NCBI GenBank assembly: GCA_964016885.1
Contig: OZ024745.1
Coordinates: 54,498,001-54,562,000, forward strand
Source of the DNA: Eledone cirrhosa
Lineage: Eukaryota
Direction: 5' to 3'
DNA: 64,000 nucleotides
Each line of letters begins with the position of its first letter. The stretch's first letter is position 1. The notes beneath the pieces were generated by a model. The model was not told where the DNA came from and made no database searches. It worked only from the letters and a program-made list of their open reading frames with translations. The translations under genes and the position numbers were made by a program. This document shows positions 5,682 to 52,620 of this stretch, piece by piece.

Positions 5682-5767
<86 letters not shown>

Positions 5768-5900
5768 GTGAGGTTTTTTTACAAAATGAAAAACAACCGA
5801 GGTGTCCTACACGAGTGAAAGTATAAAGAAAAAAAGATGAAATCGAAAATGCAACTGGAGTCTTATTTAAAAAAAAAATATATATGTATTTATTTGGTTC

Positions 5901-5936
5901 CTTTACCGGTTTCGCAGTTCTTCTGCTTTTCAAAAA
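5901..5936 (-). ncRNA. Minimal type I hammerhead ribozyme-like motif (family H1, U3-A8 variant)
   Basis: Minus strand reads UUU-UUGAAAA-GCAG-AAGAA-CUGC-GAAA-CCGG-UA-AAG, within a 210-bp insert (5761-5970) between two (TA)n tracts. Confidence 0.6.
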
Positions 5937-5965
5937 TAGAGTTGAGACGGAGGGTCTGTGGTTTT

Positions 5966-8818: not shown

Positions 8819-9000
8819 AGAAAAGCTTCTATAGGACTAGAACTGTTTCATTCGTGAGAAATCATCAGGAAGCTCTGATGATTTCTCACACATGAAACAG
8901 TTCTAGTCCTGTAGAAGCTTTTCTATATTAAAACATTTATACTCTGCTATGTATTGAGTACCTTACTTACTGTGGTTACCCCCGATTTAACCCGGAATAA

Positions 9001-18072: not shown

Positions 18073-18296
18073 CAAAATATTAATAAATGAAGATATTCAC
18101 ATAATCAAAATATGTTTATGATATATATTTCGAAGGTACTGTGCTGTTTTTTCAGTATGTCCTCGTCAGATAAAATTCATGTATTTTATCTGACGAGGAC
18201 GTACTGAAAAAACACCATAGTACCTTCGAAATATATATAATAAAAGATATATTTTGATTATGTGAATGTCTTCCTTTATTAATATTTTGAATAATA
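18067..18296. mobile_element. PLE-like inverted repeat with an HHR on each arm (family H4)
   Basis: ~110-bp arms centred near 18180. The plus arm (18190-18237) reads CUGACGA-GGACGUACUG...UAGUACCUUC-GAAAUAUAUA; the minus arm also keeps CUGACGA and GAAA. Lies between (TA)n tracts. Confidence 0.8.
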
Positions 18297-26984: not shown

Positions 26985-27846
26985 TAGTGTTTGTGAGCGT
27001 GTTTGTATATATATCCCAGAGTGTGTATGAATTTATGTAAAATTTCATTTTTATTTCCACAAATATAAATATAAATTAATTATATGATAAAATATGCAAA
27101 TATACGTAACCATTAGTGTACCGTTCGATCACATATATTCTATATTGACAAACATATATATATATATATATTGACATACACACACACATTTATATTTACA
27201 TATATATCGTACGAACATTTATGTAGTTTGTATTAGAATTTATGTATCGTAGCGGTACTCTTATATATCGTATTAGTATTCATTTTCGGGATTCTGAATT
27301 ATTATTCCGTATTAGTTTCGGGATTCTGAATTATTATTTCGTAGTAGTTTCTTTAGTATTTTGGCCCCCTACTTGTTGACCTGTCACTGTAAGATAGATT
27401 TGGACGATTACTACTAACTCATAAAATTCTTTCACTACAATCTCGTATTTAGTATTCCGTCCCACCTATTAAACTTTTCTATAGTTTAGCAGTACCAGTG
27501 AGAGACTTGATGATTGTGGTAGGGTAACCAGAATTGTTTTTTTTAAAATATTTTTAACATTCTTATTATTCTTCTATATATTTACTCCATATTGATTTAC
27601 TTATCGTATCAACTTGCTCCCCCTCCCCTTCCCGAGTATACTTCTCTTGACCTCTTATCCTTAGGATTCTGCTGTAGTTGACACTATCAACGCACGACTG
27701 GGTTTCCTCCACCCCCTCTCCCTCTTTCTTCTACTGGCAAGTTCAGCTACCCATTCCTTCCACAAAATGCCATGGTAGTATTATGTGTCTCAACAACAAA
27801 CTTTTGACCAATCCTAGTGACAATCACTTTTACCATATATGGAACT

Positions 27847-27941
27847 ACCCCCTGAAAAGCTCGGCTATTCATGTACCAGGTAAAAATTTTCATTTAGTCC
27901 AGAATTAGCCGTCGAAACGGCTTGAGCTCAGCCGTCGGGGT
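27847..27941 (+). ncRNA. Type I hammerhead-like motif with long stems II and III (family H6; G8 is A in this copy)
   Basis: ACCCC-CUGAAAA-GCUCGGCUAUUC...GAAUUAGCCGUC-GAA-ACGGCU-UGAGCUC-AGCCGU-C-GGGGU. The element continues to 28036 and matches 62592-62730 and 22652-22680. Confidence 0.7.
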
Positions 27942-28184
27942 CCTACTCGTTCCTATTACCCACTCTACTACCCTAAGTATTGAGTACTTTGGTGCGTTAT
28001 GGTCCATCTGGTTCCTGACCACATTTCCTTCGTTATTTACATATATATATATATAGAGAGAGAATAGAATGAAACGAAATTTCATTTCTCACTCTTAGTT
28101 CGGCACTTACTTAAATGTAAGTATGTAAGTATACGTACATACATATATGTATACAGACGTACAGGAAAGTATATACTTTTAGAC

Positions 28185-28271
28185 GTTCAACCATCTGGCA
28201 GGAAGGTATACGATGCTGACGATAGCTAATAAGCTTGAAACTAGTACATCGTTCCTGTGTCAGTGTTGAAC
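28185..28271 (+). ncRNA. Intact type I hammerhead ribozyme with extended stem I (family H7)
   Basis: ACGAUG-CUGACGA-U-AGCU-AAUA-AGCU-U-GAAA-CUAG-UA-CAUCGU. Stem I extends through CAGGA/UCCUG, CUGGC/GUCAG and GUUCAAC/GUUGAAC. Confidence 0.9.
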
Positions 28272-28439
28272 AAAAAGGTGACGTGGTTGCCTAAACACTG
28301 TAAATGTTCGGTAAACCGATACGTGCATATATGTATGTGTACATGTATGTATATATATACATACTACTGTACGTCTGTATACACTACATGGCGAACTGAA
28401 TGCGCACGTGTATTTTTTCCTCACTCCCTTATTTTCCCC

Positions 28440-28790
28440 CTCGTGTATTAGGACTCTCAGTTTGGCACATACAATGTACAACCCACAGAAACCTTTCTTT
28501 CAACCTAAGCTTCATGAAGCAAATCCTCCCCCCTAATGGGATTCACTTTCTAACACTTTCAAACAGCAGAGTGATTAAAAGTATCCCTATTCCCACCTGT
28601 GCAGTCATCTCTGGTGCCACACCTGAATAGTGTATCTTCCATCCTCCATCCAAATTTACTTGACCAGAGCTGCGGGGCATTCTTAAGGAAATGCCGAATT
28701 TATCTAGCCAGTAACATCTAGCCTCGTCTACTAGTTGCAGCTCTTCACATGTAAGGGTTATGATGTTTCAGGTTCCAGTGGTTACTTTTT
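28440..28790 (-). pseudogene. Decayed RTE-clade AP-endonuclease fragment
   Basis: Manual translation LVDEARCYWLDKFGIS...SGQVNLDGGWKIHYSGVAPEMTAQVGIGIL...*IPLGGRICFMKLR...YVPN. Confidence 0.7.
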
Positions 28791-29189
28791 GCTCCCTTAC
28801 GAACCATCTTTGGTGTCTCGGGATGCGCAATCTTTGTGCGCAATCGGGATGAAAAATCTTTGTGCGTCCTTTGTTTGTCTCTCAGGACAGGATGCATGCA
28901 CATGCCATTTTCAGCATAAGATGGAGGTTACAGCATAATTTTCGAACAGGCAACTGTACCTAAGGTGTACAGCATTAAATATTTAAATAATTATACTGTG
29001 ACATAAATGTATTGTATAAGTTTTCATATATACATTCATGCATACACACACACACACACACATATATATATATGAAAAGTATAGAAATTATTGTAGCAAG
29101 AAGCCAACAGTATTCCATAATATATAAGTGACTATAGCGTCAAAATGGAAACATAGTTAACGTAAGATGTGGTAAAATAATTCAAACTC

Positions 29190-32559: not shown

Positions 32560-33390
32560 TACAATATTAAATAAATGGAAAACTATATTTATAAAACCAT
32601 ATTTATTTCATTATATATATTTCGGGGATATCATATTAACAACATGTTATGCCTTCATCAGACAAAATACAATATAAACAGTTTTATAGATAAATATATT
32701 CGACATACCGTAATAAACATCAACTTCATTTGAAGAGGTTTACTCTAGCAGTGAAAATACAGAGAGAAAGAAAGAGAGAAAGAAAAGAGGGAAAAAAGAA
32801 AGAAAGAAAGACAAAACGAAGAAGAGGAAGAAAAAGAAGAAAAAGAAAAAGAAGAAATGCATGGGACCAAATAGAGAGATGGAAAAATAGATAAAGCGAA
32901 GATATTCATGTAAAGAGACAGAAAGAGATATATATATATATAGAGAGAGGAAATAGAGATAGATACATATATATATATATATGTATCTATCTCTATTTCC
33001 TCTCTCTCTATATATATATATATCTTTCTGTCTCTTTACATGAAGATCTTCGCTTTATCTATTTTTCCATCTCTCTATTTTGTCCCATGCATTTCTTCTT
33101 TTTCTTTTTCTTCTTTTTCTTCCTCTTCTTCGTTTTGTCTTTCTTTCTTTCTTTTTTTCCCTCTTTTCTTTCTCTCTTTCTTTCTCTCTGTATTTTCACT
33201 GCTAGAGTAAACCTCTTCAAATGAAGTTGATGTTTATTACGGTATGTCGAATATATTTATCTATAAAACTGTTTATATTGTATTTTGTCTGATGAAGGCA
33301 TAACATATTGTTAATATGATATCCCCGAAATATATATAATGAAATAAATATGGTTTTATAAATATAGTTTTCCATTTATTTAATATTGTA
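32560..33390. mobile_element. ~830-bp palindrome centred on (TA)n with an HHR on each arm (family H8)
   Basis: Arms of ~410 bp with a few mismatches, centre atagatac(AT)ngtatctat near 32975. HHR CUGAUGA-AGGCAUAACAUAUUG-U-UAAUAUGAUAUCCCC-GAAAUAUAUA at 33289-33336, mirrored at 32612-32661. Confidence 0.8.
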
Positions 33391-33833: not shown

Positions 33834-34777
<944 letters not shown>

Positions 34778-37880: not shown

Positions 37881-40800
37881 GAACGTCATGTGACAGACTC
37901 TCACCCAACAGGTGCCCCCTGGCTCAGCAGCAGGAACCTGACTGTCAACCAAATACTGCTGATGTTGGAGGAAGGAGAAGAAGGAGAAGAAGGAAAGGGG
38001 CCAGAACCAACTGGACGAAAGAATTGAATAGAACTGTTATGCAACTGTTATGCAATGCTACCTGAAAAGTAACCCCAAGGAGAGGGGCTACAGGAGACGG
38101 ATGCATAACATCTGGAACGAGATTGGTTTATTTAAATTAGATGAACAAAAATTGGCCGGGCAGGCTCGGGTAATAAGAACTAATGGGTGGATAAGCGAGC
38201 TGGAACTGGAGGAACTGAGCAGAGAGAATGGCTTGGAGATGGCGGGTGTAGTATGCCAGACAAGCGAGCCGGTGGGAAATGAAGGTGAGGAGGTCCTGAG
38301 AACGGAGGAACCACCCGAAGCAGACAATGATCTGAATACTGAGATAAATAATACCTGGAACAGAGATACGGCCACTGAGGAGATGAATGCTGACGGGCTA
38401 GGACAAGATTCGGTTGACATCCTAAATTTAGTGGTAGATGAATTGAACAATGATAGTGGGAGACCTATGAACCTAAGATTTGTAGACAGGAAAAAGTTAA
38501 AAGAAACAACAGCTAAGGTAAACAAAGTCATCCCATACCTTGAGGCGAGGAGCCTTCACCAGTGCAACAATATCCTCAGAGCAACAGCAAATACGGTGAG
38601 GAAACTACTTGGTATAAAAGCGAGAGGAAACAACAGACAAGAAAGAGCATAGCCGTGGTGGAAGAAGAGACTGAGTGGGCAAATCGGGGAAATGAGAAAT
38701 GACATAGGAAAGCTTGAGTCACTACTGAATGGGACACTAAAAAACATAGGCACTAAAAATAGACTGGAAATAAAATACAAAACTAGGAGTAAAAAGCTAA
38801 ATATTATCATAGAGGAATTGAAGCAACGCATTGTAGCAAAGAGTGCAAATATCAGGCGATCCGAGAACAGAGTCAGTCAGTATAAACAGAACCGCATGTT
38901 CGACAACAACCAGAAGATGCTGTTTGGACAGCTTGAGGGCAAAGAAAGAGGCAACGACTTGATCCCTGGGGCGGAACAAACTAAAACATTCTGGAGAGGA
39001 ATATGGGAGCAGGATGTTAGACACAATGCCCAGGCAGGGTGGATTGAGACAGTACAGAGGGAGATCGGTGAGCAGGCACAGCAACAGACTGATTTGAGTA
39101 TCACAGTTGAAACTCTTAAGGGGCAAGCCAAAAAACTAACCAACTGGAAATCACCAGGCCCAGATGGTGTGCAGGGGTATTGGATTAAACATTTAACATC
39201 CCTCCACCCGAAGCTGACGGCCATGTTCAATGACTGCTTGGTGTCGGGTGAGGTGCCAGAGTGGTTGACAAAAGGTACCACAGTTCTGATAATGAAAGAC
39301 CGAATCAAGGGTAATGATGCTACCAACTATAGACCTATCACATGTCTGCCCGTAATGTGGAAACTGTTGACGAGCATTGTGTCTGAGGAAATCTACCATC
39401 ACCTCCACACAAACAACTTGTTACCGGACGAACAGAAAGGATGCCGAAAGAAGTCACGTGGTACAAAGGACCAGTTGCTTATTGATAAGATGGTAATGGG
39501 GAATTGCAGGAGGAGACACACTGATCTTGCCATGGGATGGATAGACTACAGAAAGGCATTTGACATGGTGCCTCATTCCTGGATCACCAAAAGCCTGGAG
39601 ATCTTCAGGGTGGCAGATAACATCAGACAGTTGCTAGGCAGGAGTATGGGGTTCTGGGAGACAGAGTTGACATCAACTGGAGTATCCTTGAGAAGCGTGA
39701 AGATCAAGAGAGGTATCTTCCAGGGAGATAGCCTGTCCCCTCTGTTGTTTGTCCTTGCCCTGATGCCCTTGACCATTATGCTGCGAAAAGTGAGAGCAGG
39801 ATACAAGTTGGGAAGGGGAGAGCTTACCATCAATCACCTCCTCTTCATGGACGATCTTAAGCTCTTCGGGAAAAGTGAGAAGGAGTTGGATGTGCTTGTT
39901 GACACTGTCCGTATTTTCAGCAGTGATATATGTATGCAGTTTGGTATTGGTAAATGTGGAGTCATTGTGATGAAGAGGGGTAGGTTGAGCAGAAGTAACG
40001 GGATCCAGATACCAACAGGTGAGATGATAAAGGAAATTGACTCTGAGGAAGGATACAAGTATTTGGGCGTTCTGGAGGCTGATGGCATAAAGAACAAAAA
40101 AATGAAGGAATTGTTAAGAACTGAATACATTCGGAGAGTAAGGAGCGTATTGAAGTCACATCTGAACAGCAGAAATGCCATAAGCGCAGTAAATTCCCGA
40201 GCTGTGTCTATTATTAGGTACAGTGCGGGAATTCTGAGATGGAATGTTGCTGAACAAAAAGAAATGGATAGGAAGACTAGGAAGCTATTGACTATCTACA
40301 ACATGTTCCACAAGAGGAGTGATGTCGATAGACTCTACCTAAGGAGATCTGAGGGTGGAAGAGGTCTTATCAGCATAGAGGACTGTGTTCAGATGGAGAA
40401 AAACAACCTATACAAATACGTGACCTATAGTAAGGAGCCAATGCTCAGAACTGTACTGAAGGAGGGGACAGTAGGCCAGGGGATGTCCAGGGAGGAAATA
40501 ACATCAAGGAGGAAGAGCAGCCTTAAGGGAAAATCCCTTCATAGTACCTTCTTTGAGAAAACTGAATTTAGAGATCCACAGACATGGAACTGGTTGAGAA
40601 GAGGAGACCTCAAAAAGGCTACAGAAGGAATGCTAATGGCTGCGCAGGAGCAGGACCTCAAAACGAAGTGGTTGAAGCACCATATCTACAAGGAGGAGGC
40701 TAGCCCACTGTGCATGATCTGTGGAGAGAGAGAGGAGACTGTGGCTCACATTGTGTCCGAGTGTAAACACCTAGCCCAGACCCACTATAAGGGCTGGAGA

Positions 40801-41360
40801 CACGATGTGATGGGCAGGGTGATCCACTGGCACCTGTGCAAAGTAAACAATCTACCACATTCTGAGAAATGGTATGAGCATAGGCCAGAGGCGGTGATGG
40901 AGAACAATCAGGTGAAGGTGCTGTGGGATTTTAGGATACAGACGGACAAAAAACTGGAACACAATAGACCTGACCTGGTGGTTGTGGACAAAGAAAAAAG
41001 ATCGTGCCTGATTGTGGATGTGGCCTGCCCGTTCGACACGAGAGTGCAAGAGAAGGAGAGGGAGAAAATTAACCGATACCAGGACCTAAAGTGGGAGGTG
41101 AAAAGGATTTGGAACTGCCATGAAGTCAAAGTGATCCCGATTGTCATAGGCGCACTGGGGACTATCTCCAAAAGTTTCCAGGGATGGTTAAAGAAAATCG
41201 GCCCCTTCACGCTTTTTGGAACGCTTCAAAAGGCATGCTTGCTTGGAACAGCAAGAACCCTCCGATACGTCCTGAATATCTGAGGCTGCAGGTAGTGGCT
41301 TGATATTCAATCCAACGGACTTTCCAGTTAACCAACATCAATGACTGAGATTCAAGGAAT
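37881..41360 (+). mobile_element. R4/Dong-like RLE non-LTR retrotransposon, family A, near full length
   Basis: Single long frame with RT and RLE domains, short 3' UTR, TAA-repeat flanks. Confidence 0.9.
38050..41283 (+). CDS. RT plus CCHC zinc finger plus restriction-like endonuclease polyprotein (one in-frame TAG at 38650-38652)
   Basis: ORFs 38050..38652 and 38692..41283 share a frame. Motifs KSPGPDG, NYRPITCL, WIDYRKAFD, GIFQGDSLSP, HLLFMDD, CMIC...HIVSEC, RHD, RPDLVVVD...DVACP. Confidence 0.9.
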
Positions 41361-42907: not shown

Positions 42908-45900
42908 AATCCCCGTGACCAAGAAATACCGGGATGGCGGCCGGCGGGGAATAGCCGTGTCTCTAGGGGAGAACGACCCCTCTAGTCTTGGTTGACACTC
43001 GTTCTAGAAGTGGTAACACGAAATGATCACCCCTTGGCGGATAAGGATAAAACGCGACAAAATAAAGTAAATGTCTAATGATAAAATCTCATACCGGTTC
43101 GGCCGTCACCCGGGTAAAAAAGGGCCGCGTCCCTCAGAGAGGAACCAGACTGGGGTCGAAAAATCAGCTAATGGTTCAAACCTTCCCATCACTTCGGAGC
43201 TGGAAACCTCCCATAAACGTAATAGTCCTACTGTTGGCCCTCCATGCTCACCACCAAGAAATCCAAAGAAAAAGAGAGAAAAATGGTCAAGGGAAGATAA
43301 TAAAGAAGTCCTTGAGGCTTTCTACACTGTCATGTACTACCCATCAAATACATCGAATACAGAACAGACATATATCAACTGGAAAAAGAAACATCCCGAA
43401 AACAGAGGCTATATTGAAAGTAACAAACTAGCCAATATACGAAGAAATATTGTAAGAAAAAAGTTACTAACTGATATAGAAATTGATCAGATCAAGCTAT
43501 TAGCACAAAGTCAGCGAAGGGAAAATGAAACATGTGTCAGTGAAAACGAGGTAAATTGTAACACTTCGAATCCCAGCGTTGGGGCGGAATCACTGGCAAC
43601 AGAACAAATTAAAGGAAGGAGGGAGTGCATGCTCAAGATGAAACTCCAAATGAAAATAATGAGATCGTAAATGATAAAGAAATGAATGAGAATGAACTTG
43701 CCAACTTGAAGGATGAAATTATGATCGAATGGATGAAAATGAAAGAATCTGACATAGGGCAACGAGACACCCTCCCTAAGATCCAGAACTCCAAACAGAA
43801 CCAAAAGATAATACACAAGACTAACATAATTCTCAAAAACATTATCATCACAAACAAACTAAACATTACTGATTTAAATCATCTCTATTATGCATCGGCT
43901 AAAGTCACCACTCACTTATGTGGAGTGAAGATGAAAAAACAAAGGAATTCCCACAAGAAATCTACTTGGCAAGAGAACATCAATCGCCAAATAAACCTTC
44001 TCCGATCTGACATAGAAATTTTAACAAACTATAAAGTAGGTGAACATGTTAAACAAATTAAACTTAGAAAATTGAAAAAAAAGTCAGTATAAAATCAACA
44101 AGTGACGTAGACATGCTGATAGAAATAATCAAGCAAAAAGTGTCGGCCAAAGCTGCTCGTATAAGGCGCTTTGAAAAACGATCTAGATTCTATAAGGACA
44201 ATAATATGTTCAAAAACAACCAAAGAAACTTCTACAGAAAAATTGGTAAGTCAACAATAACTGCTAAATCAATACCACCCAAGGAGGAAGTGCAAGAATT
44301 CTGGGAAAAGATCTGGGCCGAGGAAAAAGTTCATAACATATATGCCCCATGGATAGACAGACAAATGAAAGAAAGATACAGCTCACCTTGAGGAACAAAT
44401 ATGGGAAAATATAACAGTTGAACAGTTGCGCTTGGCTCTAAGATAAAACAACAAATGGAAATCCCCAGGAAAAGACAAAATACAAAACTTTTGGATAAAT
44501 GCCTTCACAGAGTCTCATGAGCTGTTAGCCCAACTTTACAATGAAATAGTTAAGGAGCCAGAAAAGATACCATCATGGCTAGTTAACGGCATTACATTCC
44601 TGCTTCCGAAGAATGATGAGACAAACAATCCCAACAATTACAGACCGATAACTTGCTTGACCACAATGTATAAAATTTTAACATCAGTCCTAACTGAATA
44701 CACATATGACCACCTGATAACAAATGACCTATTTCCCATTGAGCAGAAAGGGTGTAAACGAGGCTCATATGGCTGTAAGGATCAGCTTCTGGTTAACAAA
44801 ATGATACTGGAAGATTGTCATAATAGACAGAAAAATCTATCGATTGCTTGGATAGATTATAAAAAAGCATTCGATAGTTTGCCACACAGTTGGATTGAAA
44901 AATGTTTAGAGATTTTCAAAATATCCCCCGTTGTGAGGAGGTTTTTGTCATTCAGTATGAAGACATGGAAAACGACATTCCTTTTGAATAGTGAAACAAA
45001 ATCACTGGAAGCTGGAGAAGTTAATATTAATTGTGGAATTTTTCAGGGTGACTCTTTATCACCGCTTTCATTCTGCATCGCACTTATTCCATTAAGTAAA
45101 ATGCTCAATGAAACAAAACATGGATATAAAGTCTATGACAAAACCATTAATCACTTGTTCTACATGGATGACCTGAATCTATTTGCAAAAAATGATGAAC
45201 AATTGCAAGGGCTATTATCCACTGTGGAGCAGTTCAGTGATGACATTAAAATGGAGTTTGGACTAGATAAATGTGCCAAAGCAACGTTCACCAGAGGAAA
45301 GCTGCTGAAGAGTTCAGACATTAATCTTGATCGGGGGAACGTGATAAGAGAACTTGATCAAGAAAAAACTTACAAATATCTAGGTGTTTGTGAAGGAGAC
45401 GGAATCAAGCACTCGACAATGAGGGAAAGGATAAGGAAGGAATGTTACCGCAGAGTAAGAGCAATCTTAAGAACGGAATTGAATGCAAGGAATAGGATCG
45501 ATGCCATAAACACGCTTGCCATACCAGTAGTAACCTACAGTTACAATGTCATCAACTGGTCAAGCACAGAGATCCGTAGGCTCGATACAAAAATTCGAAA
45601 ATTCTTAACCATGCACAGAATGCATCACCCTAAGGCAGATATAGATAGAATATATCTCCCTAGGAAAGAAGGAGGACGTGGGTTAATCCAGTTAGACATT
45701 GCGTTGAAAACTGCAACAATTGGATTATCTACATATCTAAGGGAATCACATGATTGGATGATCAAACTCGTTTTGAAACACGAAAGCATCAAAAGATCAT
45801 ATTCCATTACAAAAGATGCACAAAGATACAGTAATGGACTACAAATTTCAGAAGTCCCATTTACTGCTGAAATGGAAAACAGAAAAAACAAAGCAGGTAA

Positions 45901-46848
45901 AAGTAACTGCAAAGAAAGAACTGCTACAGAAACTGGCTAAGAAATGGCAAGAAAAGCCTCTGTATGGAAAATACCCAGAGCGAGCTAACAATCCCGATGT
46001 TGACAAAACTTTAACCCATCAGTGGTTAGCATCCTCTGGACTGAGATCGGAGACTGAAGGACTGATTATATCGGCACAAGATCAGTGTCTGCCACAAAAA
46101 ATTACCAAGCCAACATAATAAAAAATGGATGCAGCCCATTATGCCGTCTATGCAAAAAACAACCAGAGACCATTGACTATATAATTTCAATGTGCAGTCC
46201 TATAGCTCCAACCGAATACCTAAACAGGCATGACAGAGCTGCACAATACATACATTGGATAATGTGTAAGCATTTTGACCTGCCCCATCAAAAGAATTGG
46301 TGGGAGCATCAACCACCTCCCATACTTGAAAAAGATCACATATCAATCTTTTGGAACTTTAGCATCCAAACAGACCGAAAAATAGATGTAAGTAGACCTG
46401 TTATAATATTGAAGGACTTTAAAAAGAGGGTATGCCTGCTAATTGATATGTCTGTTCCAATAGACAAGAATGTATCTATAAAACATTTGAAAAATTGAGC
46501 AAGTATAACGACCTGGAGATAGAAATTGGAAAAATGTGGAAATTGAGAACTAAAACAATACCAGTGGTTGTAGGCGCTCTGGGAATGATACCTAAGGGGT
46601 CTAATGATTACTTATCGCAAATCCCAGGAAACCCGCGTATAGGAGAAATACAAAAGATAGTACTAATGGGAACTGCCCATATACTAAGGAAGATTCTGTC
46701 AATATAAGTACATCACAAGTCTAAACACTAAAGATGCATGTGTGAGTATGTATGTTCTTTCTTGAACATGGCGGACCTTGTTGTCTCTTGAGGTCACTGG
46801 TTGTGACTTGGTGATAACTCGTATGAACATAAAGCAAGATAAATGCAA
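42908..46848 (+). mobile_element. R4/Dong-like family B, apparently full length, ORF broken by frameshifts and stops
   Basis: GC-rich 5' UTR, ATG at 43071, fragments through 46707 with KSPGKD, NYRPITCL, WIDYKKAFD, GIFQGDSLSP, HLFYMDD, CRLC..MC, RHD; TAA tail. Confidence 0.9.
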
Positions 46849-46874
46849 CTATAATAATAATAATAATAATAAAT

Positions 46875-47733
46875 ATAACAACAAGGAGGAAGAGCAACCT
46901 TCATGAAAAATCCCTTCAAAGTTCCTTCTTTGAGAAAAAAGAAGTTAGAGATCCACAGACATGGAACTGGTTGAAAAGAGGAGACATTAACAAGGCTACA
47001 GTAGGAATGCTAATGGCTGCACAACAGCAGGCCTTCAAAACGAAGTGGGTGAAACACCATATTTACAAGGAGGAGGCTAGCCCACTGTGTAGAATCTGTG
47101 GAGAGAGAGAGGAGACTGTGGCTCACATTGTATCCGAGTGTAAACACCTAGCCCAGACCCACTATAAAGGCTGGAGACATGACGTTATGGGCAGGGTGAT
47201 CCACTGGCACCTATGCAAAGTAAACAATTTACCACATTCTGAGAAGTGGTATGAGCATAAGCCAGAGTCGGTGACAGAAAACGATCAGGTGAAGGTGCTA
47301 TGGGATTTTAGGATACAGACGGACAAGAGACTGGAACACAATAGACCTGACCTGGTGGTTTTGGACAAGGAAAAAAGATCGTGCCTGATTGTGGATGTGG
47401 CCTGCCCATTCGACACGAGAGTGAAAGAGAAGGAGAGGGAGAAGATTAACCGATACCAGGACTTAAAGTGGGAGGTATAAAGGATTTGGAACTCCCATGA
47501 AGTCAAAGTGGTCCCGATTGTCATAGGCGCACTAGGTACTATCTCAAGGAGTTTCCAGGGATGGTTAAAGAAGATTAGTCCAGCCCCGCTTTTTGGAACA
47601 CTTCAAAAGGCATGCTTGCTGGAAACAGCAAGAACCCTCCGATACGACCTGCATATCTGAGGCTGCAGGTAGTGGCTTGATATTCATTTCAACAAACTTT
47701 CCAGTTAAATAACATCAATGACTGTGACTCAAA

Positions 47734-48013: not shown

Positions 48014-50254
48014 TTACAGACACATACTCAGAGAAGGCCCATTCATTCGGGCCATACTTGCTTCTCTCACCCATCTTTCAACAAAATGCTGGGAAGAGAG
48101 CACTTCCCTCTCTACCCTGATTTTCCTTTTCAAATGAAATTTGAAAAAGTTAATCAGGGCATCACCGAAGAGGTAAGTGCTCGTCTTCAATCCTTTCAAA
48201 CGTGTCCACCATACTATCTCTTTCGCCATGGCCACCAGACAGATAAAAACTGCCTGCCCTTCCAGGCTAAAGGAAGGGGGCGGGGCAATCCTCACGATGG
48301 ACTCAGCTGATAGCTGGATCCGTCCTACACGTGACAGCAGGTGTTCGACATAAACCCACAAGTCAGCAATGCTCGGACACTGGACGAGTGCGTGCAGGAC
48401 GGTTTCGTCGCCCTGCGCGCATCTCGGACATGCCCGGCTGACGGCACCTCCATGCCTGTAGAGTTTATCCCGAACTGGCAAAGCTCCTCGGTAGCACTGC
48501 CAGGCCAGGGATTTCTGGAAGTTGTCCATAGGCCCCGGCCCGAAAGTCCTTCCGAAGAGATTGGCTAGTTGATTTTCGTCGACGCCTAGAGTTTCTCCAA
48601 GTACGTTATCGCTCTTCCCCTCTACTAATCCCCTATAGAACGCCAAGGTGGAGTTTCCACCGATCACATTGCCCGATTGGTCGAGGGCTGTGAGCGCCTG
48701 AAGACATTGCAGTCTCCAAGCGCTCCCTCTCGGTCTTCGCTTGACCCAGGACTGCAGCTCCGTCAAGGAGACGAGCTGGGGAAAAACGTGTCTTGCAAAC
48801 GGCGACCACACCTGATCACCGTCGAGGAAGAGGTGGAGATGTCGTAGCCTGAGCGCGTGTCTGCGCATCATCAGCCACGGCATGCCCAGCCCTCCACGTA
48901 GCGGGTGTTGACAGCAGATGGACCGCCTGACCATCGGAGCGCGTCCCTTCCACAAGAAGCGAAAGAGCAAACGCTCCAGCGCAGTCAGGCGGGGCTTAGG
49001 ACAAGGTACGACGGTCAGGCGGTAGTAGATGACGGATGCGATGTACGCATTCGCCACCTCCGCTCGACCTTTCAGGGATAGCTTCCTCTCGGCCCATTTC
49101 TGGGTGAGAGAAGCCACCCTGCTCGTCACCTCGTCCCAGTTTTTGTCCGTCTGGAGGTCTGGACCGAACCAGACCCCTAGCAATTTAACCGGTCCGTCCG
49201 TCCAGCGCCCGACGACGCTGTTGGACGGCATGGTCCTGCCTCTCCAGGTGCCGAGCTGCAGGCCCACTGACTTTTCCTGGTTGATCATTGCTCCTGTCAC
49301 CGCTTCGTATTCTCTTAGTGTAGTGCCGATCGCCTCGATGTGTTTGGCGTTCGACACCACTACGGTGACATCGTCGGCATATGCTGACACGGATCTTCCG
49401 CATCCTAGTTCGCGCGGGACCCCCCTCAACGTCTCCAGTTTGTGCAGTAATGGCTCGAGAGTCAATACGTACAATAGGGACGAGAGGGGACATCCTTGGC
49501 GGACCGAGCGCATGATGTTGAACGGTTCCGAAAGGTGACCGTTCACTCTCACTACAGAGCAGATGTCGCTGTGCATGGCAGCGATCCAGCCTCTGAAGAC
49601 GGGCCCAAAGCCAGCCGCCCTCAGGACTGCCGTTAGGTAACGATGGTCGACCCTATCGAAGGCTTTCGACTGATCTAAATTGATCAAAGACCCACCCGTG
49701 CCAGGTTCCCTAGCTACCCTCTCTACGATGTATCGCATGAGGTGGAGGTTGTCGTGGATGGATCTGTCGGGAATGGCGCATGTCTGTGCCTCTCCCACCA
49801 GACCACCAACGACAAGCGCCAACCTCTTTGCTAGCACCTTGGCCAAAATCTTGAACTCTGTGTTTAGCAGAGTTATGGGCCTAAAATTATCTATGTTATC
49901 CCCCTTGTTCGGATCCTTTCTCAGCAGCGCCACCGCTCCTCGGCTCACAGAGCTGGGAATTCTCCCGTTCTGTTGCCAGTTGCAGTAGACGTCCGCCAAG
50001 AGGCCTCCGAACAAGTTTGGCAATTGTACGTAAAGTTCATAGGGCAGACCATCCAAACCAGGCGATTTACCCCTTGTGCAACTAGTCATTGCATCCCGTA
50101 CTTCAGCGGTTGTTATCGGCTTTTCGCAACACTCCGCCTCAGTGGCCGAAAGCCGCGGCAGTCCGTCGAGGTAGACACTAAAGTCCATCCCTCGATCCAG
50201 CCCGCCACTGCCCCCGAACAGTTGAGCGAAGTGTCGCTGAAAAGCTTCACACAT
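48014..50254 (-). CDS. ORF2 reverse transcriptase plus C-terminal CCHC finger
   Basis: KSPGLDGLP, FRPITLLN, LDQSKAFDRVDH, VRQGCPLS, SAYADD, CPRC...ETVLHALVQC. Confidence 0.92.
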   Translation of the reverse strand: MCEAFQRHFAQLFGGSGGLDRGMDFSVYLDGLPRLSATEAECCEKPITTAEVRDAMTSCTRGKSPGLDGLPYELYVQLPNLFGGLLADVYCNWQQNGRIPSSVSRGAVALLRKDPNKGDNIDNFRPITLLNTEFKILAKVLAKRLALVVGGLVGEAQTCAIPDRSIHDNLHLMRYIVERVAREPGTGGSLINLDQSKAFDRVDHRYLTAVLRAAGFGPVFRGWIAAMHSDICSVVRVNGHLSEPFNIMRSVRQGCPLSSLLYVLTLEPLLHKLETLRGVPRELGCGRSVSAYADDVTVVVSNAKHIEAIGTTLREYEAVTGAMINQEKSVGLQLGTWRGRTMPSNSVVGRWTDGPVKLLGVWFGPDLQTDKNWDEVTSRVASLTQKWAERKLSLKGRAEVANAYIASVIYYRLTVVPCPKPRLTALERLLFRFLWKGRAPMVRRSICCQHPLRGGLGMPWLMMRRHALRLRHLHLFLDGDQVWSPFARHVFPQLVSLTELQSWVKRRPRGSAWRLQCLQALTALDQSGNVIGGNSTLAFYRGLVEGKSDNVLGETLGVDENQLANLFGRTFGPGPMDNFQKSLAWQCYRGALPVRDKLYRHGGAVSRACPRCAQGDETVLHALVQCPSIADLWVYVEHLLSRVGRIQLSAESIVRIAPPPSFSLEGQAVFICLVAMAKEIVWWTRLKGLKTSTYLFGDALINFFKFHLKRKIRVEREVLSSQHFVERWVREASMARMNGPSLSMCL

Positions 50255-50264
50255 TTGCCCGGGA

Positions 50265-50661
50265 TCGTTCCAAGAAAGGTCTCCAGACGCCGGAAGAAAT
50301 CAGGCCGCCCTGCTCCTGTCGGGGCATAGACGGCCACTAGCCTGAAAGCTTGCCCGTCTCCGCTGGTCACGTCCAGCACCACCAGCTTACCCTCTGGGTC
50401 CAGGAAGATGGCCCGTATGGCGAGATCCAAACCTCTCCGAAAAAGCACAGCAACTCCTCCCCCCGATCCAGGACGGCTGGGAGACGCGTACACATCGAAG
50501 CCGCCGAAGATCGGTGCGAAGGCCCGTGCTTCGGAGATTCTGGTCTCGATGATGGCCACTACATCTATGTTTAGTGACCTGAGGTCGTTGAGCAGGTGAC
50601 CCTGCTTCCATGACGACCCCAAGCCACGCGCATTTATGCTGCCTATTCTGAGTGAGGTCAT
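50265..50661 (-). pseudogene. ORF2 AP-endonuclease, N-terminal half only
   Basis: MTSLRIGSINARGL...DVVAIIETR...GGGVAVLF...FRLVAVYAP. No GDFN or SDH motif follows; the sequence jumps out of frame to the RT-proximal region. Confidence 0.85.
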
Positions 50662-50696
50662 GTTTAAAATAGAGTGGAAAAGATGGGAAAGACCAC

Positions 50697-52620
50697 TTAC
50701 CGTACTTTTCGTAGAGGAGGGATGGTTTTTACATCCCTTTTCACTTGATCGTCTGGTGAAGGGACCGTTGAATCGTCCCTTCGGCTGGTCGTCGGCTCTT
50801 CTATGAGTATGTCCGAATATACTCTTCGATTGATAGTTCCTCCTAGGTCCCTGAAATCACCAACTGCGTTGGGGAATTTCGTTTTAATGTTTGTGTATTG
50901 TTTCTGTGCTATTTTTAGCAGTCTTATGTTAGTTGGCGTTTTGATTGGTGCTGGTATTATGTAGTCGTGTTGTGAAATGTCTGTGTGTTCAATTATGTAA
51001 GTCATTAGTTTCTTGTTGTGTGTATTTATTGCCGTGCATTTGTTTTTCTGGGGGTGGGGTGTGGTTCTGCTATTTTCTTGTCGTTATTGCTGAGTGTGTG
51101 TGTTTTGTTGTTGTGTTTGCGATGTTGGTGCTTGTGGTGGTGGTGTTGAAGTTGTTGTTGGCGATGGGGTTTTCGCCGGTGGTGATGGTGGTGCTAGTGT
51201 GGGTGGTAATGGTGTTGGTGGTGTTACTGCTGTGAGTCTCTTTGCAGTAGACTTTACCCTTTTCTCATTTCTTTCCTCCCTTTTCAAAGGCGACGATGCG
51301 CTGCTTCTGCGTTTGTGCCTTCTTACGAACTTTTGCCATCCCTCTCCCACCTCACACTCCATGTCTGATTCTGTGAGGTCGGGGAGGGGTACCAGCTCCA
51401 CTCTTTCACTTGTTGTTGTTGGTGATGTTTGCACTGGAGTCTCTGTTGCAGCTGCATTTGGTATTGCTGTTGTTGTTGTTAATATTTCCACTGCTGCTGC
51501 TGTTTTTGATTTCCGTGGCGTGGGTATGGGTGCCACGGACCTATCGTTCCTTGTTGCCGTTTGTCCTGTTGCTGGTAGCCGTGGAGCCGGTTTCGGAAGG
51601 AGGGGGGTTTTCTCCTTTCTCAATGTCTTCTCGTTGCAGAAGGCCCTGAGGTGAGTCTTCGATCCACAGCGAAAGCATTTCGGGCGTTTTCCCTCAACAC
51701 TTATGGGCAGTTGAGTGCCGTTATCAAAGTCTATCACATCCGGGATAGCTTCGATGCACTCCTGGTTGGTTTGGATTAACATCTCAATGGAGGTGCCGAC
51801 CCAATCTTCTCTTACTTTTTTCTGTACTTGCAGTACAGTTGTTTTGTCCTCGATTCCGACGAGCACAGACGCGGCCAGCCAAGAAGGGGCCATCCCGGGG
51901 GTGGGGGGTCAGTTTGACCCTCACAATTTTTTGCCCGCAGTAGGAGGGCACCAACACCATTTCCTCGCTCCTTAGGGTCACTACGGATTGAGCCTTTGCC
52001 TCCTGGGGTGTGGCAAAAAGTACGTCTACGGTGGCATATTTTTTGCCTCGGGTGATGTGCGTTTTCCGCTGCCACACAGACCCCAAGGCTTTTTGTATTT
52101 GAGCCTCTGTGGCTCTTTCAACCCTACGAGATTTTGTACTTACTGTACGGTACGTGACCGTACAGTGCTGTTGGGTTTCGAAAAATGTTTCCGCTGCCTT
52201 GCAGATTGCTCGGTGTCCAGTCTTTGTCACCATCTTCTTCGCTTCCTCTAATTCCTCATTTGTTATGAGGATTGTTTCCAGGTTCTTCGCGATACCTGCA
52301 AACGAGATGGGTTTTTCTTTGCTGCTGTTGTTGTTGTTGTCGTCAGAGCTGCTGTTACTTTTGTTGTTGCTGCAGGTACTACGACTACTGCCTCCGCCGC
52401 TGTTGCTGTGGTTGTTGTTGGTGTTGCTGCTGCTAATGCTGTTGTTGTTTATGCTGCTGGTGATGCTGTTGCGGCTGCTACTGTTGTTTTCATTGTCACT
52501 GTTGCTGTTGTTATTACGGCTGCTACTGCTATTATTCCTGACGTCAGACGAATGAAATGGGTTTTCGTATTTCCCGCACACCTGTTTCGTCGTTGTCGTC
52601 GTCGTCGTGGAGAAATCTTG
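50697..52620 (-). pseudogene. ORF1 gag-like protein in frameshifted pieces; start uncertain
   Basis: Zinc knuckle CFRCGSKTHLRAFC, ISFAGIAK, WQKFVRRHKRR; frame change at the C-run near 51900. Confidence 0.75.

Follow-up and report, generated by a model that had tools for sequence, protein, structure and literature searches.

The hammerhead retrozymes of animals are repeats of 150–450 bp with RNAs of 170–400 nt (PMC7229834). Ribozymes of the axolotl that have a similarly weak helix III, or a U·U pair, cleave efficiently only as dimers, retrozyme circles are closed by RtcB, and Penelope elements have been proposed as the mobilisers (PMC7229834). A 2026 preprint backs the Penelope link with co-occurrence and with homology in Xenopus (10.64898/2026.07.22.740005). 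Newt satellite 2 and the schistosome hammerhead repeats are reported to have an internal promoter that acts from the upstream unit (PMC2220036, PMC6765202). Penelope-like elements leave an inverted 5′-truncated copy and a 30–40-bp tail that is usually at one end only, and they are biased towards microsatellites (10.1101/2021.04.23.441226). The field has yet to settle which enzyme moves animal retrozymes and what lies behind their unusually high expression; as far as the portions consulted go, the papers that propose Penelope do so without an insertion footprint (PMC7229834, 10.64898/2026.07.22.740005).

We analysed a 64,000-nt stretch of the Eledone cirrhosa genome (assembly GCA_964016885.1, contig OZ024745.1, forward-strand positions 54,498,001–54,562,000), here called the window, and use its own numbering. 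An initial annotation made from the sequence had picked out 28095–28400 as an intact hammerhead at the tip of a ~300-nt rod-like hairpin, a candidate retrozyme monomer or viroid-like RNA. Sequence comparison indicates that the hammerhead motif is real and that it lies inside a damaged copy of a large retrozyme family.

Results

The catalytic core is as annotated, with CUGACGA at 28216–28222, GAAA at 28237–28240 and the GUA site at 28244–28246. A check of the sequence also placed the 6-bp stem I (28210–28215/28247–28252) and the helix III palindrome ACUAGU (28240–28245) where they had been described, and found the CAGGA/UCCUG pairing (28199–28203/28253–28257) and the 7-bp helix GUUCAAC/GUUGAAC (28185–28191/28265–28271). 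Helix II comprises four pairs with a U·U mismatch at its base, a mismatch that the initial annotation did not mention. That annotation was also silent on the inability of helix III to form two pairs intramolecularly. Folding gave a single A·U pair on a four-base loop at +6.0 kcal/mol within one molecule, and a possible 6-bp duplex at −4.8 kcal/mol between two copies. Since helix III cannot close in the monomer, ribozyme cleavage is likely to depend on dimers. The catalytic fold is calculated to lie 1.4 kcal/mol above the minimum and to make up ~3% of the ensemble, predicting a ribozyme that is weak alone. A motif scan detected one ribozyme at the locus, within less than one full unit, in agreement with the annotated absence of a second copy, and no hammerhead motif on the minus strand there. 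Rfam returned no hammerhead match at the gathering score and none at E ≤ 10 (0 of 22 matches). Weak Rfam matches to miRNA families, due to AT-rich hairpins and far below their cut-offs, were rejected.

The features of the locus copy are listed below. Unit positions (q) refer to the natural cut-to-cut monomer of another family locus, L003, which is 442 nt long and in which q1 is the first base after the cut.

28041–28061, no strand: (TA)n tract plus (GA)3, the insertion target, forming the end of a neighbouring high-copy repeat (sequence)
28062–28164, minus strand: inverted arm, unit q279 to ~171 (BLAST to L003 and alignment)
28162–28164, no strand: inversion junction with 3-nt microhomology (alignment)
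28163–28302, plus strand: sense part 1, q359–442 followed by q1–56 (96–100% to L003)
28170–28175, plus strand: TATA word; the U6-like upstream word is missing from the locus copy
28185–28271, plus strand: extended stem I, with the 7-bp helix, a 6-pair helix, CAGGA/UCCUG and an AGGUAU bulge (intrinsic to the family)
28210–28252, plus strand: type I hammerhead motif, predicted cut after 28246 (sequence and motif scan)
28301–28303, plus strand: locus-specific deletion of q57–106, 50 nt relative to L003 (BLAST)
28303–28383, plus strand: sense part 2, q107–189, of which the last 17 nt pair with the inverted arm (BLAST)
28384–28400, no strand: flanking non-family sequence, holding the right arm of the outermost helix (no family match)

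The inverted arm matches L003 at 90% over 28062–28175 by BLAST; it holds a one-sided tail and ends 7 nt before the long terminus (q286; see below). Sense part 1 contains the TATA hairpin, the extended stem I, the ribozyme and the first side hairpin. Sense part 2 stops 20–40 nt ahead of the usual short terminus, and the missing 3′ end was not found elsewhere in the 64-kb window. The flank at 28384–28400 was covered by none of 39 other genome matches. Contigs from other sequencing runs, of unrecorded kind, carry on into family sequence at 28163, 28164 and 28302, continuing past 28302 with the sequence that is deleted at the locus; 28358–28574 is uncovered at 97% in such contigs, which allows no inference. 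These alignments identify the locus as an incomplete two-armed copy of a hammerhead repeat, both truncated and internally deleted, and probably inactive.

Directly upstream, 27845–28040 is a different high-copy repeat, the (TA)n end of which hosts the hammerhead copy; it has a hammerhead-like motif of its own with a changed core, long helices II and III and a GUC site. The right flank at 28444–28800 belongs to an older repeat family with 75–79% identity among its matches.

The exact 31-nt core occurs 10,046 times in the 3.0-Gb genome, against 0 for a control. A search with the locus stretch gave 1,323 candidates, of which 40 were scored. The family was sampled at 80 loci from the first 100 listed exact-core matches (C1, 1.6–42.5 Mb), so that all were picked by the exact core and come from one chromosome arm; 78 were mapped, L067 and L068 being dropped as not centred. 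Tandem multimers are present elsewhere in the genome, as a retrozyme reading of the locus had led one to look for: 30 of the 78 loci have at least two ribozyme-bearing segments, and the 21 full units measure 417–464 bp. The distinct monomers across loci (n = 38) are 411–511 nt long and 80–100% identical. The family has two main subfamilies, A and B (33 and 45, respectively). The unit has a GC content of 39% and its anatomy lacks an LTR pair, and no ORF of at least 150 amino acids is present at the locus. In the mapped loci the unit is preceded by a further unit, direct or inverted, or else by unrelated flank.

Circular folding of 10 of the 38 monomers gave z-scores from −2.4 to −10.5 in every case with 65–70% of bases paired, and stem I was fully formed in 4 of the 10. 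The consensus fold of 23 monomers branches, and 97.3% of its cells are paired. Between the subfamilies, stem I (G·U/U-A) and two other helices carry both-side changes. Cells with both-side changes exceeded all 500 shuffles, the independent events being few; pair-level covariation was not above shuffles (7 pairs, with 59 of 500 shuffles as high). The helices bridging the two sides of the cut site are conserved. The copies number in the thousands, many of them tandem multimers, and compensatory changes preserve the inner helices, which bears out the annotated membership of a metazoan non-LTR retrozyme family. The family is a non-coding hammerhead repeat of 417–464 bp and, on the sequence evidence, likely a retrozyme. 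The active-retrozyme definition of Li 2026, as worded in the portion available (10.64898/2026.07.22.740005), describes other loci of the family and does not describe this locus.

Among side observations on the family, one array unit beside B units (L251:3666–4076) resembles subfamily A over its first half and subfamily B over the rest, a chimera attributable to template switching or recombination. A segment near the short end, L003:1910–1945, is far deeper than the rest of the unit in the run of a second organism and may be shared with another repeat. An RNA-editing scar is not clear in the family (A>G 45 against T>C 28, p = 0.06).

The family shares with the metazoan non-LTR retrozymes a type I hammerhead, dispersed tandem repeats, low GC, the absence of an ORF and a self-paired predicted circle. 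It differs from those described in the available part of that report in a unit at or above the reported size range, in a ribozyme that combines both weakening features, and in having fixed paired ends, a (TA)n target and an internal U6-like word (PMC7229834).

The rod-like appearance of the locus has another origin. Folding of 28090–28405 gave −107.1 kcal/mol (z = −6.8, with none of 100 shuffles as good), so the stretch does fold far better than chance; the fold is nevertheless multibranched, with several side hairpins. The perfect 16-bp helix is present and really extends to 17 bp (28148–28164/28367–28383). The outermost 11-mer pair holds at 9 of 11 Watson–Crick positions, with its right arm outside the element, in the flank. 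The stretch had been described as one folded unit without a duplicated arm. However, 28062–28164 is the reverse complement of unit q279 to ~171, and the long helix is therefore an inverted duplication, perfect over its outer 16–17 bp because the copy begins with an inverted piece of its own unit. Removal of the left arm in silico changed the energy from −107 to −65 kcal/mol, a cost of 42 kcal/mol. Nor is the locus a monomer: its sense portion amounts to ~220 bp, contains a deletion and is joined to the inverted arm, whereas the true unit is 417–464 bp and branched.

The inversion junction was not recovered as a family feature, the 29 junctions in the 78 other loci being scattered and none identical to it. 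A junction search gave three other full-length spanning matches among the 40 candidates scored out of 591. Two of them join at different positions. The third (L253, the same as L002) joins at the identical short-homology spot, but its long and short ends have changed places, and it is therefore likely to be an independent event. The inner helices are the family structure, and the inversion junction behind the outer helix is not propagated. We conclude from these comparisons that the rod is an accident of insertion.

In a viroid-like replicon the monomer is a rod or quasi-rod, and both polarities carry ribozymes. The designation does not hold here, where the fold is branched and the motif is on a single strand. 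That the locus itself might yield a functional rod-like or viroid-like RNA monomer draws on its fold (z = −6.8) and its intact ribozyme core. We nonetheless judge this highly improbable: there is one ribozyme only and no motif on the minus strand, the outer helices derive from a local inversion and from flank, the copy has lost its 3′ end, the promoter word and 50 internal nt, and the junction is not propagated.

The two-armed form of the locus copy recurs across the family. Outward 3′ ends cluster at q280–288 (long) or q205–232 (short), and the 78 mapped loci have two outward ends in 29 cases, one in 48 and none in 1. Every classed two-armed locus has one long and one short end (21 of 21, p = 4.8e-7); in the remaining 8 of the 29, one end falls outside both classes. 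A (TA)3 sequence lies within 20 nt of 81 of the 88 classed 3′ ends, compared with 8.5% of control positions, and is found at 16 of 50 outer 5′ ends. Both arms belong to the same subfamily in all 22 typed loci, a further 7 having an untyped arm. Rare variants are mostly private, with 7 common to both arms and 115 on one arm, and for this older family we rejected shared rare variants as a proof of the circle.

This anatomy resembles that of EN+ Penelope-like elements in its inverted 5′-truncated copy, one-end tail and microsatellite targets; canonical Penelope clades also carry a hammerhead, in their terminal repeat (10.1101/2021.04.23.441226). The same source, in the part consulted, points to differences: the Eledone unit has no ORF, its tail is ~57–74 nt compared with 30–40, and its hammerhead is full-size with an extended stem I.

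Inverted sequence ends many loci, as it would if the unit were a MITE, or another DNA transposon with terminal inverted repeats, that carried a hammerhead by chance. The terminal inverted repeats of a MITE are fixed and equal. In the present family the ends differ by a fixed tail, the units are tandem, 48 of the 78 loci have a single arm, and 5′ ends and junctions are scattered. We regard a MITE origin as largely refuted and barely credible.

Penelope-like elements abound in the genome, which contains 10,596 GIY-YIG candidates, of which 150 were scored, and Penelope open frames of up to 1,096 amino acids. Five Penelope ORFs were tested; all matched the reverse transcriptase family (two above the cut-off) and four matched GIY-YIG. 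Pieces of Penelope ORFs occur near 10 of the 110 unit loci. Together with the Penelope-like insertion anatomy and the match of Xenopus retrozymes to Penelope terminal repeats (10.64898/2026.07.22.740005), these pieces would suit a unit that is the pseudo-LTR of an unsampled autonomous Penelope-like element, its copies being that element's 5′-truncated ends. The pieces, however, come from several families and lie apart from the unit, and no shared ORF body joined to the unit was found in the 110 loci. None of the 40 Penelope-type loci examined has the hammerhead unit as its terminal repeat. At L141 and L142 the unit lies within (TA)n, outside the terminal repeat of the Penelope element itself. 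What lies upstream of the unit, as noted above, is a unit, an inverted unit or unrelated flank. We thus consider the pseudo-LTR explanation improbable.

The unit tail gave no match to Penelope ends better than shuffles. By eye it had suggested the commonest Penelope family, a likeness discarded because it did not exceed shuffles (scores of 24–30 against a null mean of 29). Naiad was also set aside as partner, Naiads being without hammerheads in the portion available (10.1101/2021.04.23.441226).

Several other elements were noted in passing. More hammerhead-like cores, mostly in inverted pairs, lie in the window at 8868–8875, 13780, 18169–18190, 32661–33289, 34372–34501 and 35420, and resemble cores near Penelope ORFs. 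In the commonest of the Penelope families with long ORFs (L131, L132, L140 and L142), a minimal hammerhead lies 1.0–1.4 kb past the ORF; its core is a U3-A8 variant and its helix III is palindromic, and the family has several alternative 3′ ends. Related sequence occurs at ~5700–5950 of the window. The window also holds non-LTR retrotransposon ORFs at 38032–41283, 43071–47480 and 48014–50856, which from their motifs we take to be R4/Dong-like and L1/Tx1-like.

The best tail match led to a young tandem family of 465-nt units with near-identical copies (L197, L234–L247). Global alignment of this sister to the present family gave 295 identities and a score of 252, compared with a null of 28 ± 14. 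In the sister the palindrome of helix III and the bulge of stem I are the same, and the ends lie near q232 and q301. Eleven of its 14 loci are two-armed, and all 11 pair a long with a short end. By eye, variants are common along an arm or across both arms in L235, L237, L241, L242, L244 and L246, which would fit one template per insertion, whether circular or linear. Multi-unit repeated blocks in L234 (sister) and L248 (present family) are higher-order DNA duplications, and growth at the DNA level therefore also occurs. No RNA-editing scar was found in the sister family (12 against 14).

The longest word common to the family and its sister is TATGCAAATTAG, 119 and 131 nt ahead of the cut. Three U6 loci, which are the ones with a distal element, the best U6atac and MRP have this word, exactly or with one or two changes, at −76 to −78 with a TATA at −30. 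It is missing from 14 other U6 and 4 other U6atac matches, which are likely to be retrocopies. The chance expectation of the exact 12-mer is 8e-5 per unit. Both promoter words occur in subfamilies A and B (with one change in B) and in the sister, at a spacing of 42 nt in all three compared with 46–48 nt in the host genes. Because the promoter words match those of host U6-type genes, an internal U6-type promoter in the unit is likely. The word doubles as one arm of an RNA hairpin. At the locus, the position 30 nt past the TATA is 28200, the start of the CAGGA arm of the extended stem I, and this is the predicted start site. The distal promoter word was not found on the sense strand of the unit at 2 mismatches, and T4–T6 runs within the unit would hinder Pol III.

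A promoter of the U1/U2 type was rejected, as host U1, U2 and RNase P have a different proximal word and no fixed octamer. In the host snRNA promoters (L159–L178, L199–L217) we observed a distal word resembling TTACCTCCCT at around −255 to −290; the proximal element is TCAGT near −57 to −66 in U1, U2 and RNase P, and an octamer-like word at −77 in U6, U6atac and MRP. Newt satellite 2 is described as having an snRNA-type promoter transcribed by Pol II, and the schistosome repeats as transcribed by Pol III (PMC2220036, PMC6765202, in the portions available). In contrast to these, the Eledone word matches the host U6, U6atac and MRP promoters and not those of U1 or U2.

The promoter block, that is, the sequence upstream of the predicted start, is spanned by 69 of the 78 loci. 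This count bears on whether the same retrozyme, mobilised by the same Penelope enzymes, might be copied from a linear read-through transcript of a tandem array, the weak ribozyme often leaving multimers uncut and the long end being the RNA 3′ end at an oligo-U stop. In its favour, A, B and the sister all have an oligo-T run no more than ~15 nt from the long end, the ribozyme by itself is predicted to be weak, and a homogeneous source array would account for the variants shared along an arm as well as a circle does. With upstream sequence in 69 of 78 loci, however, a linear template would need repeated read-through past T-runs and intact ribozymes. The helices joining both sides of the cut site are also kept, and circles are known for the retrozymes of coral, mussel and axolotl (PMC7229834). 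A linear template is, in our estimation, unlikely.

Discussion

We favour as the probable explanation of the family a retrozyme inserted into (TA)n by Penelope-type enzymes via a circular RNA. The anatomy of the copies, their ends, target and copy number are observed; the circle and the cutting, transcription and priming steps are what we infer. In a tandem array, the U6-like word and TATA of one unit would start transcription just before the ribozyme. Neighbouring ribozymes would use the palindromic helix III to pair with each other and would release a unit-length RNA, which a host ligase would join into a branched circle. The Penelope GIY-YIG nuclease would cut (TA)n, and the reverse transcriptase would prime from each side of the break, the two priming sites being fixed and ~57–74 nt apart. 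The predicted outcome is a pair of opposed arms, one with a tail and one without, meeting at a variable microhomology junction. Arrays could grow later at the DNA level.

The link drawn for vertebrate retrozymes offers a parallel in its co-occurrence with Penelope and in the presence of monomers, dimers and multimers. That link, however, comes from Xenopus co-occurrence and homology, and no mollusc is sampled in the portion of the preprint available (10.64898/2026.07.22.740005). The Eledone family, by comparison, gave no homology to a Penelope end but has an insertion footprint. In the literature consulted we found no report of a hammerhead retrozyme in octopus or another cephalopod, noting that the supplements of PMC7229834 and of the 2026 preprint may list cephalopods, and none of a retrozyme with a U6 promoter. 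As read from sequence, the interest of the family lies in its Penelope footprint and its putative U6-like internal promoter.

The locus itself is ordinary debris of its family. The family provides a short non-coding substrate for study of the origin of the Penelope inversion and one-sided tail. The questions of enzyme and of expression both become testable, given footprints that can be counted, a candidate promoter whose start site is predicted, and long Penelope open frames in the same genome. More tentatively, and with doubts that outweigh our confidence, the Eledone elements may form a retrozyme superfamily in which each unit has captured a host U6-type promoter, placed so that the first transcribed base is also that of the ribozyme. 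The RNA would be cut in dimeric form and circularised, and Penelope enzymes would go round the circle as they copy it, working from either side of a (TA)n break and entering at two sites marked by structure. If so, it would be a circular RNA that parasitises Penelope elements, encodes no protein and supplies its own promoter, with its whole cycle legible in the genome.
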